NCBI GenBank assembly: GCA_958295815.1
Contig: OY282374.1
Location: 2,882,856 to 2,946,855 of the forward strand
Direction: 5' to 3'
Length of the DNA stretch: 64,000 nucleotides
Source of the DNA: Candidatus Poribacteria bacterium
Lineage (GTDB): Bacteria > Poribacteria > WGA-4E > WGA-3G
Shown: positions 42,310 through 45,236 of the stretch, in pieces
Layout: each line of letters begins with the position of its first letter
Numbering within the stretch: the first letter of the stretch is position 1
Notes under the pieces: generated by a model
What the model was told of the DNA's origin: nothing
The model's database searches: none
What the model saw: only the letters and a program-made list of their open reading frames with translations
Translations under genes and position numbers: made by a program

Positions 42310-43158
42310 ATGAAGACGGTGCTGGCGTACCTTGAATTGGCACGCCCTCTCAACGGAATTATCGCTTTTATCTCGGCATGGCTCGGAGGGGTATTCGCAA
42401 GCCGAGGTGACACAGAAAACCTTTTAGACGTCCGTCTGTTGTTAGTTTCTATCGCTGCATTACTCCTACTATCCGCAGGGAACGCTATAAACGATTATTG
42501 TGATTACAATATAGACCGAATTAACCGTCCACAGAGACCACTCCCTTCCGGACGAATTCAGAGACTACACGCCGTGATTTTCGCAATAGTTCTGATGGTA
42601 ATTGGCATCTGGCTTGGAACACTTATTAGTAAAAGTGCTATAATCTTTGCAATCCTCGTAGCCGTTGCCCTGATCGGTTACGCTTTCTGGCTAAAACGCA
42701 CCCCTTTTGTAGGCAATTTGGTTGTCAGCGGCTTAACGGGTTCTACCTTCATTGCGGGAGGCATCGCGATAGACTCGGTGCAGGGCACACTGGTTCCAGC
42801 TATCTTTGCGTTCTTGTTCACAGCAGCACGAGAGATTATCAAAGACCTTGAAGATACAGAGGGTGATCTGAAAAACAGCGTTAAAACACTTGCGATCCTC
42901 AATCCACGTCTTGCTGTAGGAACAGCACTTGGTTTCATGGCACTCGTTATTTTGTTCAGTCCTATCCCGTATCTATTCGGATGGTACTCATGGCATTATC
43001 TGTTTGCGGTTGTACTCGGTGTTGACTTAGTTCTAATCGGATTGGCAATTCGGCTGTTGCGTGATACTTCCAAAGAGAGTTGTGCTGCCATTCAACGCTG
43101 GATGAAATGGGACATATTCGTGGGACTCGGTGCGATCTACATCGGAATATTTTTATGA
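42310..43158 (+). CDS. UbiA-family prenyltransferase (digeranylgeranylglyceryl-phosphate synthase-like)
   Basis: Eight to nine TM helices. Asp-rich motif [24 protein letters not shown] (the UbiA NDxxDxxxD box). Encoded next to GGGPS. Confidence 0.7.
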   Translation: [282 protein letters not shown]

Positions 43159-44375
43159 TAAACTACGATCAAGTTATTGCTTTCTTAGAAAGAAAAAACC
43201 CGGATGCTGAGACAGTATCCCGTTTTAAGCAGGCGTATCACAGCTTTTCTGAGACCGGAGAATGGCGTCCCTCCTATCAGGTGCTGACCACAGGCTGGCA
43301 GAAACTTGATGGGGTTTTACTGATGACACCAGAGGATGTGTTTGATACCGACTATCGGGTTTATCTCAGCACTACAACCGAACGAGGTTTGAGAGAACTG
43401 CTCCTCGCATTTCCGAGACGCTGCACCGGAATGTTTTATCTAACAGAAAAATGGATGGTCAACGGGATCCACGATGTCTTAGAGGGTGAGGTCGTTCGGA
43501 CAGATAGTGGGGCGTTTTATCGGGGTATTAAGCGTGGTAGTGGCACGGTTGCAGAACAGCGAACAATTTCTAAACGCAAAGATGCGATTGCTGCACACAT
43601 GCATAAATTATCGACCTTGAAGGGCAAACTTGAGCATTCACAATTTGTTGTTGAAGGAGAACTGATAGTGGAACGGGCGGTTAGAGACGGACTGCCTATT
43701 GGCGGAATCCTTTATACCACCACCCTACTTGCAACACCTGATGGGAAAAACCTCCTGAAGCGAGCCTTTACGGATAATATTTCCTGCTATCAGGTTAGTG
43801 ATGGTGTCATGGGTTCAATCACTACAACACGTCCGATACCATCGGTCATGGCATCGGTACACTTCAACTTCCAGCATTTTTTGTCCGCATCAGGTGAACC
43901 CAATTTTCATTTTAGTCGGGAATGTACAATGCTCATCGCCGAGAATGTCGCGAACCCAGACAATTTGGGTATGACCTTGCGAACAGCAGATGCAGCAGGG
44001 GTATCTGCTGTCTTATTGAGTCGTGAAGGAGCGAGTCCGTTCCACAAGAACTGCATTCGCGCATCGCGAGGGGCAGTTGGACGTTTACCGTTGTACTATG
44101 CAACGGAGATAGGTTCTGCTATTGAGGTATTAAAGGCATCAGGTTGGCAGGTCTTAGGTGGAACTTCAAGTGCAGAAAATGCGTTATACACTACGAAACT
44201 CTCGCTGCCTACAGCCATTGTTGTCGGCAACGAAAACACGGGACTCTCTACAGAAACGCGAGAACTCTGTACAGAACTCGTCCGCATTCCGATGGCATCT
44301 GGACAATCATCACTCAATGTAGGGGTTGCGGCGGGTGTTCTGCTCTACGAACTTGCACGACGGCACAGAATTTGA
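43155..44375 (+). CDS. Fusion protein: N-terminal domain of unknown function + C-terminal SpoU/TrmH-family RNA 2'-O-methyltransferase
   Basis: The start ATG overlaps the stop of the UbiA gene (ATGA). C-terminal SPOUT blocks NPDNLGMTLRTADAAG...IVVGNENTGLS...IPMASGQSSLNVGVAAGVLLYE. Confidence 0.7.
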   Translation: MINYDQVIAFLERKNPDAETVSRFKQAYHSFSETGEWRPSYQVLTTGWQKLDGVLLMTPEDVFDTDYRVYLSTTTERGLRELLLAFPRRCTGMFYLTEKWMVNGIHDVLEGEVVRTDSGAFYRGIKRGSGTVAEQRTISKRKDAIAAHMHKLSTLKGKLEHSQFVVEGELIVERAVRDGLPIGGILYTTTLLATPDGKNLLKRAFTDNISCYQVSDGVMGSITTTRPIPSVMASVHFNFQHFLSASGEPNFHFSRECTMLIAENVANPDNLGMTLRTADAAGVSAVLLSREGASPFHKNCIRASRGAVGRLPLYYATEIGSAIEVLKASGWQVLGGTSSAENALYTTKLSLPTAIVVGNENTGLSTETRELCTELVRIPMASGQSSLNVGVAAGVLLYELARRHRI

Positions 44376-44489
44376 CAAATCACCACAAATATGGTAAAAT
44401 TTTAAAAACAGTGGTCGGCACACAAGCCATGTAAAGATAGACGGCTTGCGAGTCGAGATTTAACATCCCGAAAAAAGGATAAATCGCAT

Positions 44490-45236
44490 TTGAGATTGAC
44501 TTGGGTTCTGAATCACTTTAAAGAGGTACTGAAAAAGCACAATGCTGGCTATTTTGTTCTAATCGATCCAGAGCAGTGCGATGTCAGAAAGTGTGCCAAA
44601 CTTGCAGGCGAGATCGAGAAGGCTGGTGCAGATGCAATTTTGTTAGGCGGGAGTTTTTTAACGAACGATTTGCATCCGATTGCGAAAGCCCTGAAACAGG
44701 AAACTCAACTACCAATCGTGCTTTTTCCGGGCGATTCGATGCACTTGACACCCCACGCTGATGCTATCCTCTACATCAGTCTTATCAGCGGTCGTAATCC
44801 AAACTATCTTATCGGCGAGCAAGTAAAAGCCGCCCCGCGCATACGACATCACGCGCTTGAACCTATTCCGACGGGCTACATGCTCATTGATGGTGGTAAC
44901 AGAACCGCCGTTGAATTCACGAGTGGGACGATGCCCATCCCGCGTGACAAGCCAGATATAGCGGGACCTCATGCATTAGCTGCGGAATATCTCGGCATGC
45001 AGATGGTGTACTTAGAAGCAGGTAGCGGTGCGACCCATCCTGTTCCAAACGAAATGATCTCCACAGTAAAAGCACAAATCGGTATTCCGTTAATCGTCGG
45101 TGGTGGCATCCGCACACCAAAAATTGCGGCAAAAAAGGTAGCGGCGGGTGCTGATTTTGTCGTAACAGGTAATGTTCTTGAGGAGAATGGATCTCTCGAA
45201 CTGATGAAAGCGTTCGCTGATGCCGTTCACGGCTAA
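44490..45236 (+). CDS. Geranylgeranylglyceryl/heptaprenylglyceryl phosphate synthase family (GGGPS / PcrB)
   Basis: TIM-barrel GGGPS pattern: LIDPEQ..., GGSF..., LEAGSGA..., IVGGGIRT... Non-ATG (TTG) start, position uncertain. Confidence 0.75.
   Translation: MRLTWVLNHFKEVLKKHNAGYFVLIDPEQCDVRKCAKLAGEIEKAGADAILLGGSFLTNDLHPIAKALKQETQLPIVLFPGDSMHLTPHADAILYISLISGRNPNYLIGEQVKAAPRIRHHALEPIPTGYMLIDGGNRTAVEFTSGTMPIPRDKPDIAGPHALAAEYLGMQMVYLEAGSGATHPVPNEMISTVKAQIGIPLIVGGGIRTPKIAAKKVAAGADFVVTGNVLEENGSLELMKAFADAVHG

Follow-up and report, generated by a model that had tools for sequence, protein, structure and literature searches.

The window analysed here is a stretch of 64,000 nucleotides from a Candidatus Poribacteria bacterium (contig OY282374.1 of assembly GCA_958295815.1, positions 2,882,856–2,946,855, forward strand). 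Its segment 42310–45236 is occupied by three plus-strand genes, specifying a UbiA-family membrane prenyltransferase, a SpoU-type methyltransferase and a geranylgeranylglyceryl phosphate synthase (GGGPS). Judged from sequence, the first and the last of these probably act together in the synthesis of archaeal-type ether lipids, with the methyltransferase as a passenger between them. Both lipid genes possess intact active sites and are under purifying selection, they are linked in Poribacteria generally, and the GGGPS gene is preceded by a conserved promoter. The segment contains the following features; DGGGP stands for digeranylgeranylglyceryl phosphate.

42310–43158, plus strand: DGGGP-synthase-like UbiA-family membrane prenyltransferase, 282 amino acids (Pfam UbiA, PF01040)
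43155–44375, plus strand: three-domain SPOUT RNA methyltransferase, 406 amino acids, its ATG overlapping the UbiA stop codon
43155–43544, plus strand: N-terminal methyltransferase domain (approximately residues 1–130), a rare domain with a predicted GNAT-like fold
43599–43832, plus strand: L30e-like/MRM3-like substrate-binding domain of the methyltransferase (residues 149–226; PF22435)
43929–44348, plus strand: SpoU/TrmH catalytic (SPOUT) domain of the methyltransferase (residues 259–398; PF00588)
44372–44400, plus strand: sigma-70-type promoter of the GGGPS gene (TTGACA, 17-nt spacer, TAAAAT, extended -10 TG)
44475–44479, plus strand: ribosome-binding site AAGGA of the GGGPS gene, 10 nt upstream of the TTG start, as read from the sequence
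44490–45236, plus strand: group II GGGPS by family placement, 248 amino acids, TTG start (Pfam PcrB)

A sequence-only reading of this DNA had placed a GGGPS/PcrB-family TIM barrel two genes from a UbiA-family prenyltransferase. Both genes lie where it put them, the motif which it quoted for the prenyltransferase is found in the translation, and the ATGA overlap between the UbiA stop codon and the methyltransferase start can be read directly from the sequence (tttttATGAtaa). The three-gene observation is confirmed by independent gene calls on near-identical metagenome contigs, since these yielded matching products of 282, 406 and 248 amino acids.

Family assignments were based on scores against curated hidden Markov models (HMMs), on E-values against PDB sequences and on checks of individual residues. 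Three large homologue searches retrieved relatives at 66% identity or above, and every organism named among their hits belonged to Poribacteria. The genomic comparison set comprised 87 Poribacteria-like or homologue-bearing loci, labelled L001 onward, from which 85 GGGPS and 70 UbiA sequences were aligned with PDB sequences.

On this evidence the gene at 44490–45236 is, by family placement, a group II GGGP synthase and not a PcrB-type enzyme. Its product contains a Pfam PcrB domain (PF01884; E=3.2e-46, 158 bits, cut-off 23.9) and passes both the GGGP equivalog model TIGR01769 (224.4 bits, cut-off 161.55) and NF003198 (289.9 bits, cut-off 247), while with the heptaprenylglyceryl phosphate synthase (HepGPS) model NF003197 it reaches 35 bits (cut-off 260). 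The best PDB matches are to the group IIa enzyme of M. thermautotrophicus (MtGGGPS, 4mm1; E=1.7e-53, 42% identity) and the group IIb enzyme of Flavobacterium johnsoniae (FjGGGPS, 4jej; E=1.3e-52, 45% identity), followed by the GGGPS chains 6jo3 and 6nke (2e-47 to 2e-45). Chains of Bacillus-type PcrB/HepGPS are matched at approximately 6e-7 and the group I enzyme of A. fulgidus (AfGGGPS) at 3.2e-6. By E-value the protein is therefore some 47 orders of magnitude nearer to the group II structures than to PcrB or group I. The Bacillus PcrB shares its TIM-barrel superfamily and is otherwise a distant match; the grouping with Bacillus-type PcrB that the sequence-only reading had named as counting against its proposal was not observed (group II at about 1e-53 versus PcrB at 6e-7).

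Catalysis by GGGPS requires a Tyr/Tyr/Glu triad and phosphate-binding loops (PMC9385802). In the window protein the triad is Y130/Y174/E176 and the loops are represented by S179-G180, G205-G206 and G227, all of them invariant in the 85 Poribacteria sequences; triad and loops are also common to MtGGGPS and FjGGGPS. Group II enzymes have an aromatic hexamer anchor on helix alpha-5', which may be W, Y, F or H (PMC9385802). At this position the window protein has F143, which aligns with W141 of the M. thermautotrophicus enzyme, is again invariant in 85 of 85 sequences and predicts a hexamer as in MtGGGPS. FjGGGPS, in contrast, carries an Arg in place of the aromatic anchor, and hexamers are not expected of it because bacterial GGGPS enzymes are excepted from the group II rule (PMC9385802). 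A second difference concerns the beta-alpha-8 residue, usually Thr in group II and Asn in the group I AfGGGPS (PMC9385802); the window protein has N228, and Asn occupies this position in 81 of the 85 Poribacteria sequences.

The UbiA protein (PF01040; E=1.4e-42, 146 bits, cut-off 34.2) has several strongly hydrophobic segments. Its sole strong PDB match is the DGGGP synthase (DGGGPS) of M. jannaschii (MjDGGGPS, 6m31; E=6e-39), to which it aligns over its full length (residues 3–279 with 7–279, 34% identity over 273 columns, without large gaps). Further matches are to chlorophyll synthase (4e-7) and decaprenyl-phosphate phosphoribosyltransferase (DPPR synthase; 7e-4), and no MenA, UbiA or COQ2 chain was found at E<0.01 in the PDB sequence search. 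With MjDGGGPS as its only strong relative of solved structure, the protein does not fall among the MenA/UbiA quinone prenyltransferases, the second outcome that the sequence-only reading had considered damaging. The three top NCBIfam models are all of DGGGPS type (NF009523, 225.5 bits; NF009521, 215 bits; NF009522, 178 bits), well ahead of EboC (88 bits), of the quinone and haem models (35–61 bits; 35–55 bits for those of ubiA/menaquinone type) and of the chlorophyll models.

The catalytic motifs of DGGGPS are D-x3-D, Y-x4-K (printed as Y125-x(5)-K130) and D-x2-D-x3-D (PMC9385802). The corresponding residues of the UbiA protein, D65, D69, Y124, K129, D179, D182 and D186 (Mj D66, D70, Y125, K130, D180, D183 and D187), are invariant in 70 of 70 Poribacteria sequences, so that all three motifs and the five aspartates needed for activity are shared with MjDGGGPS. 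A DGGGPS-type assignment, nearer to DGGGPS than to enzymes with other acceptors, is supported by these sequence comparisons. MjDGGGPS is an archaeal enzyme, whereas the window protein is bacterial and its DGGGPS activity is a prediction. The identity proposed earlier for the pair, GGGPS plus an archaeal-type UbiA enzyme, is upheld by the HMM, PDB and residue evidence alike. Public annotation already labels Poribacteria proteins as 'digeranylgeranylglyceryl phosphate synthase' and 'phosphoglycerol geranylgeranyltransferase'.

Gene order, selection and expression signals

The 80 genomic loci closest by GGGPS protein (66–88% identity) all belong to metagenome-assembled genomes (MAGs) of Candidatus Poribacteria, several of them complete chromosomes of 4–6.7 Mb. 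NCBI taxonomy lists Poribacteria under 'Bacteria candidate phyla' and not within the FCB (Fibrobacteres-Chlorobi-Bacteroidetes) group. The earlier suggestion that the pair fits an FCB-group candidate phylum is not supported, since the closest relatives are without exception from a phylum which NCBI places outside that group.

Across the phylum the gene order bamA-skp-lpxD-UbiA-SpoU-GGGPS-grpE-dnaJ-prmA is recurrent. Of the 77 loci whose upstream sequence extends to 3.5 kb or more, 66 possess a UbiA homologue no further than 6 kb upstream of GGGPS, the median gap between the two genes being 1.3 kb, and in two further loci UbiA lies at the locus edge. The four-base ATGA overlap of UbiA and the methyltransferase gene is retained in 39 of 64 loci. 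Two loci, L009 and L039, lack the methyltransferase gene, and there UbiA is followed immediately by GGGPS, at a distance of 272 and 224 bp, respectively. The block, including the position of the methyltransferase, is also retained in a divergent lineage (L085/L086) in which GGGPS is 66% and UbiA 58% identical to the window proteins. The UbiA-SpoU-GGGPS arrangement is not the product of chance.

The L085/L086 loci possess some peculiarities of their own. A second, unrelated UbiA-family gene (5510–6547; 345 amino acids) shows no significant similarity to the window UbiA, a polysaccharide deacetylase gene is also found between lpxD and the DGGGPS-like gene, and dnaK lies between grpE and dnaJ.

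Selection was assessed as the median identity to the window protein over the 43 loci which hold all seven of the compared genes. The values are 91% for LpxD, 85.5% for GGGPS, 80.3% for UbiA, 78.5% for DnaJ, 73.9% for GrpE and 73.3% for PrmA. Purifying selection on GGGPS and UbiA is thus as strong as on core housekeeping genes. The methyltransferase is the fastest-evolving product of the seven, with a median of 70% (67% for its N-terminal domain).

The promoter of the GGGPS gene (44372–44400) matches the consensus at 11 of 12 positions, has in addition the extended -10 TG, and overlaps the stop codon of the methyltransferase gene. The pattern TTGACA-17-TA[A/C/G]AAT scores 11/12 in 75 of the 85 Poribacteria loci, with the TG present in the rows inspected. 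Among the rows listed it is situated 89–126 nt upstream of the GGGPS start, and it is also found in L009 and L039, the loci devoid of the methyltransferase gene. When 25 diverse loci were aligned, the promoter, the AAGGA and the TTG start context (GCATTTGAGA) proved to be conserved, and the rest of the 5' untranslated region (UTR) did not. A riboswitch or leader RNA in this UTR of approximately 90 nt was considered and rejected, since an Rfam search gave no match at E<=1 and the sequence outside the promoter, ribosome-binding site and TTG varies between lineages.

No conserved sigma-70 promoter was found upstream of UbiA across the comparison loci. This, together with an lpxD-UbiA gap that varies between 13 bp and about 2.6 kb (608 bp in the window), suggests that in some lineages UbiA is expressed by read-through from the envelope-biogenesis genes. 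A motif, GGTATCCGTTATCCCTAACAGATTATC, recurs 30–60 nt upstream of the UbiA start in L017, L019, L032, L037–L040, L049, L078 and others, and may represent an operator or a promoter of non-sigma-70 type. It is missing from the window because REP-like repeats fill the lpxD-UbiA spacer there. A CIRCE heat-shock operator was sought upstream of grpE and was not found.

The 608-bp spacer in the window contains an array of repetitive extragenic palindromic (REP)-like repeats with terminator-like hairpins. At 41990–42300 a tandem unit of about 40 nt (consensus ACGGCACACGGAGTGTGTCTGCTACTTTTAACTCACGACA) is present in 3.7 copies according to TRF, with partial copies on the flanks; in each unit a T-rich tail follows a hairpin of 7 bp (GGCACAC-GGA-GTGTGCC). 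The unit recurs twice at 1260–1345, and by chance no copy would be expected. Among the 87 comparison loci the hairpin core is found in one, L001, a near-identical contig (94–100% protein identity), and the repeat looks like a lineage-specific REP-like element. Open reading frames (ORFs) at 41733–42156, upstream of UbiA, were judged to be spurious since they are located inside this array.

A CCCTCCCACAA-type core is common to other intergenic repeats of the window, namely those at 27754–27945 (a 65-nt unit, three times), 35458–35526, 45245–45275 and 4096–4116 (TTCCCACAATG, twice). The copy at 45245–45275 follows directly upon the GGGPS stop codon and is made up of the hairpin GGGGTTACAAACCCC and then TCCCACAATG. 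These repeats are possibly a second dispersed repeat family or a family of terminators.

The methyltransferase gene

The sequence-only reading had described the gene between UbiA and GGGPS as an unusual fusion of an uncharacterised N-terminal domain of about 230 amino acids to a SpoU/TrmH methyltransferase. The SpoU/TrmH part of this description is sound: residues 259–398 contain a SpoU_methylase domain (PF00588; E=4.4e-35, 121 bits). The remainder was overstated. Residues 149–226 match PF22435 (MRM3-like_sub_bind; E=3.1e-6, 27.9 bits, cut-off 27), and the Pfam annotation precomputed for the listed methyltransferase homologues shows a domain of this type in nearly all of them. An L30e-like substrate-binding domain is standard in RlmB/TrmH-type enzymes, so that about one third of the supposedly unknown region is ordinary.

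Against PDB sequences the catalytic domain matches RlmB (E. coli YjfH, 1gz0) at 3.8e-25, and residues 128–404 match the TrmH-family protein 5kzk at 1.9e-23. The alignment to RlmB residues 106–251 includes the three SPOUT motifs NPxNLG...R, VxGxExxG and IPMxxxxxSLNV. The window protein resembles RlmB in having an L30e-like substrate-binding domain followed by the SpoU domain. It differs in its additional N-terminal GNAT-like domain of about 130 residues and in its score against the RlmB equivalog model TIGR00186 (124 bits versus a cut-off of 160.15, over the catalytic half only), by which it is not identified as an orthologue of RlmB, the enzyme of 23S rRNA Gm2251. From these sequence relationships the protein most likely 2'-O-methylates an RNA.

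No Pfam or NCBIfam model, those for GNAT included, matched residues 1 to about 148. When residues 1–150 were compared with 1.84 billion representative proteins, 36 clusters were retrieved at E<=0.001. Ten of the longer matches were scanned with Pfam: nine contained SpoU, eight of them the substrate-binding domain as well, and the tenth (321 amino acids) had no Pfam hits. One homologue of the methyltransferase is annotated as Chloroflexota.

Structure prediction with AlphaFold2 for the whole methyltransferase from a shallow alignment (69–94% identity) gave a predicted local distance difference test (pLDDT) score of 63 and a non-interpretable N-terminus. For the N-terminal domain with a diverse alignment the mean pLDDT was 83.5 and the predicted topology alpha-alpha-beta-beta-beta-alpha-beta-alpha-beta-beta. 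The top 19 Foldseek matches in the PDB are GNAT N-acyltransferases or GNAT subunits of NatA/NatC wherever the title names the protein (one of the 19 titles is uninformative), and they are weak, the best having E=1.7e-3 and TM of about 0.46. The acetyl-CoA loop Q/RxxGxG/A is not evident in the domain, and the conserved beta4-alpha3 stretch reads ER[AGS]LR[DE]LLL. On the strength of the model the domain is read as a GNAT-like module, divergent and possibly non-catalytic, attached to an RNA 2'-O-methyltransferase. This rare and undescribed domain architecture is a small, separate curiosity.

A group of relatives of about 580 amino acids (P0248, P0254, P0255, P0257, P0259 and P0272) possesses, after the GNAT-like domain and before the KRGS linker, an extra insert of about 150 residues (alignment columns of about 200–340). 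The insert displays the conserved stretches CFHW...W..EVHGLQ and GYR.FYR and is possibly a second GNAT-like half; one relative of this length is annotated as Chloroflexota.

The methyltransferase is probably a passenger at this locus and not part of lipid synthesis, since its gene is missing in L009 and L039, its relatives in L084 and L087 are not beside lipid genes, and it evolves faster than the other genes compared. The last two loci are the settings outside Poribacteria in which the neighbourhood of homologues was examined. Both homologues carry the shared N-terminal domain, neither has UbiA or GGGPS beside it, and a linkage of the methyltransferase with lipid genes was rejected for these two. 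Its probable passenger status is a further reason why the fusion had been given too much weight.

Proposed function of the pair

In the proposed pathway GGGPS, a soluble TIM barrel and predicted hexamer, would take a geranylgeranyl or similar polyprenyl group (most likely C20) from the corresponding diphosphate and attach it at the C-3 hydroxyl of glycerol phosphate. The membrane-bound DGGGPS-type UbiA enzyme would then place a second prenyl chain onto the monoether, and the product of the pair would be a di-O-prenylglyceryl phosphate of archaeal type. The phospholipid could be finished by bacterial CDP-diglyceride and head-group enzymes, as happened with the Cloacimonetes genes in E. coli (PMC7852524). 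Transcription of GGGPS would proceed from its own strong, phylum-conserved sigma-70-type promoter, and its translation from the conserved TTG start. UbiA would depend on its position downstream of bamA-skp-lpxD, at times at a distance of 13 bp, having no conserved promoter of its own, and would be translationally coupled to the SPOUT methyltransferase which follows it. The enzymatic activities, the chain length, the stereochemistry of the glycerol phosphate and any role of the product as a bulk membrane lipid are inferences from the genes.

Comparable pairs are known from other bacteria. In the survey of Coleman et al. (2019) each of the 12 FCB phyla covered had both GGGPS and DGGGPS (PMC6431249). 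Those of Ca. Cloacimonetes gave archaeal-type lipids when expressed in E. coli (Villanueva et al. 2020, PMC7852524), and the Cloacimonetes MAGs are without G1P dehydrogenase (G1PDH; G1P, glycerol-1-phosphate) and CarS (PMC7852524). Co-localisation of the pair among bacteria, according to the same authors, 'seems to be restricted to Ca. Cloacimonetes' and is possibly ancestral (PMC7852524). The window resembles the Cloacimonetes and other FCB pairs in having a group II GGGPS and a DGGGPS-type UbiA protein beside ordinary Gram-negative envelope genes, and it resembles Cloacimonetes also in the co-localisation of the two genes and in that G1PDH is not evident, the scan in Poribacteria having covered the 64-kb window. 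In Poribacteria the co-localisation is phylum-wide. It differs from that of Cloacimonetes in usually including an RNA methyltransferase gene between the two, and in lying directly downstream of bamA-skp-lpxD. The Cloacimonetes pair has been expressed and its lipids detected; the function of the Poribacteria pair is a prediction from the genes.

Poribacteria are a second bacterial case of co-localisation beside Cloacimonetes, and one that extends across a whole phylum. They are not mentioned in the main texts of PMC7852524 and PMC6431249 nor in those supplements of PMC7852524 that were examined, and a literature search found no paper linking Poribacteria or sponge symbionts with GGGPS/DGGGPS. 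A Black Sea study found homologues of Tes in 10 of 29 and of Mss in 14 of 29 Poribacteria MAGs (PMC11868695), which is a lead toward membrane-spanning lipids.

Several points weigh against ether-lipid synthesis as the function of the pair. The UbiA protein scores below every DGGGPS equivalog cut-off (225.5 vs 269, 215 vs 296 and 178 vs 353 bits), and enzymes of the UbiA family group by prenyl acceptor and are functionally diverse (PMC9385802). About nine of the 77 loci have no UbiA homologue within 6 kb upstream of GGGPS. No G1PDH was detected among the ORFs of at least 150 amino acids scanned in the window, and a survey table of 2016 lists no G1PDH for Poribacteria (PMC5059525). GGPP synthase, geranylgeranyl reductase and CDP-archaeol synthase (CarS) or a bacterial substitute for it are likewise absent from the genes of the window, although no search was aimed at them. 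The low equivalog scores and the diversity of the family would agree with a GGGPS that gives a monoether of minor or unknown role and a UbiA protein that prenylates another acceptor, be it aromatic, a pigment or quinone-like. Such an arrangement has precedents in the heptaprenylglyceryl phosphate of Bacillus and in active GGGPS enzymes of Bacteroidetes, likewise of unknown role. The bacterial relative Ubi-297/EboC, for which a putative DGGGPS was the nearest characterised homologue, proved moreover to farnesylate quinolines (PMC9235831), and Villanueva et al. state that bacterial DGGGPS homologues had generally been assumed to function otherwise (PMC7852524). The window protein, however, gives 88 bits with the EboC model as opposed to 215–225 with the best DGGGPS-type models; it shares 34% full-length identity with MjDGGGPS and conserves all the residues proven by mutagenesis; and its gene is linked to GGGPS throughout the phylum, with direct adjacency in two lineages. 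A monoether and a separate acceptor are accordingly regarded as rather unlikely. The proximity of the two genes might also be no more than inherited order within a housekeeping block (bamA-skp-lpxD...grpE-dnaJ-prmA) whose members serve unrelated processes. It is all nine genes of the block that are syntenic, not merely the pair; GGGPS has its own promoter and therefore need not be co-transcribed with UbiA; an unrelated methyltransferase stands between the two; and roughly nine of the 77 loci have no UbiA nearby. This explanation is considered improbable in view of the fact that GGGPS and DGGGPS catalyse consecutive steps of one archaeal pathway, that the pair is still adjacent where the methyltransferase has been lost (L009, L039), and that the linkage is kept in a lineage with proteins 58–66% identical to those of the window.

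Two other explanations have very little to recommend them. The pair could serve in the salvage or breakdown of archaeal lipids, taken from ammonia-oxidising archaea sharing the sponge, in place of synthesis; most of the related loci are from MAGs of Poribacteria, a phylum known chiefly from sponges. Coleman et al. (2019) list a reverse, catabolic reaction as one option for bacteria without G1PDH (PMC6431249). The Cloacimonetes enzymes, on the other hand, ran in the synthetic direction in E. coli (PMC7852524), and the neighbours of the Poribacteria pair are envelope-biogenesis genes, not catabolic ones. The salvage explanation thus appears very improbable. Prenyl transfer with release of diphosphate is, besides, effectively irreversible. 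It is likewise hard to believe that the GNAT-like/SPOUT protein belongs to the lipid pathway, modifying an intermediate or regulating UbiA, and is translationally coupled to UbiA for that reason. The ATGA overlap in 39 of 64 loci would fit such a role, as would the location between the lipid genes, which 64 loci share with the divergent L085 lineage; but the protein combines an RNA-binding domain of L30e-like type with a complete catalytic domain resembling that of RlmB, L009 and L039 retain the lipid genes without it, the two homologues examined outside Poribacteria (L084, L087) have no lipid genes as neighbours, and it evolves faster than six other genes of the locus.

If archaeal-type ether lipids are the product of GGGPS and UbiA, a wider claim can be put forward tentatively: it is possible, though doubtful at present, that Poribacteria constitutively make archaeal-type isoprenoid glycerol diethers as a regular part of their envelope. 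DGGGPS would then be expressed with bamA-skp-lpxD and GGGPS from its own strong promoter, and in lineages with Tes homologues the lipids could be membrane-spanning. Both lipid genes are core, strongly conserved and co-localised, and the pair lies directly beside outer-membrane biogenesis genes.

The existence of a natural mixed archaeal/bacterial membrane in a living bacterium is an unsettled matter, the evidence being genomic together with the heterologous expression of the Cloacimonetes genes. Poribacteria would add to it a phylum placed by NCBI outside the FCB group, the pairing itself being known from other bacteria. Were the claim true, 'mixed' membranes would extend past the FCB group, and part of the archaeol-type biomarker signal of sponges would be bacterial, with consequences for the assignment of isoprenoid ether biomarkers. 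Poribacteria rank among the most abundant symbionts of sponges, the association for which they are chiefly known; their high densities in easily collected sponges would allow culture-free study, and tissue rich in Poribacteria would offer a practical natural system for work on mixed membranes. The finding is of moderate interest for the lipid-divide field and is not surprising in principle.

Other genes of the window

The following further features of the window were recorded.

4138–11000, minus strand: block of genes for DUF4175 (1223 amino acids), DUF4159 and VWA-domain (805 amino acids) proteins
16759–17844, minus strand: six-blade Kelch protein with eukaryote-like repeats (E=1.9e-69)
20821–21639, minus strand: DUF5683 protein, its gene adjacent to the PorV-like gene
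21657–22781, minus strand: PorV-like protein (E=1.2e-9)
23206–25071, minus strand: cadherin-repeat protein with a borderline Por_Secre_tail/CHU_C sorting domain (27.4 bits, cut-off 27)
32798–33953, plus strand: two adjacent paralogous GNAT (Acetyltransf_3) genes, 183 and 194 amino acids
58260–59654, plus strand: beta/gamma-crystallin and DUF1349 protein

Markers of a type IX secretion system had also been claimed for the window. They are present, but the matches are weak (E=1.2e-9 for the PorV-like protein, 27.4 bits for Por_Secre_tail). These genes raise the question of a working type IX secretion system in Poribacteria and of kinship with the FCB group. Eukaryote-like repeat proteins have been described for Poribacteria, and the Kelch, cadherin-repeat and beta/gamma-crystallin proteins of the window are of this kind. 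The block at 4138–11000 resembles the BatA-like aerotolerance clusters and the membrane-anchored clusters of Bacteroidetes. The two GNAT genes at 32798–33953 are located between the genes for lysyl-tRNA synthetase and a lolC/E-like ABC permease.

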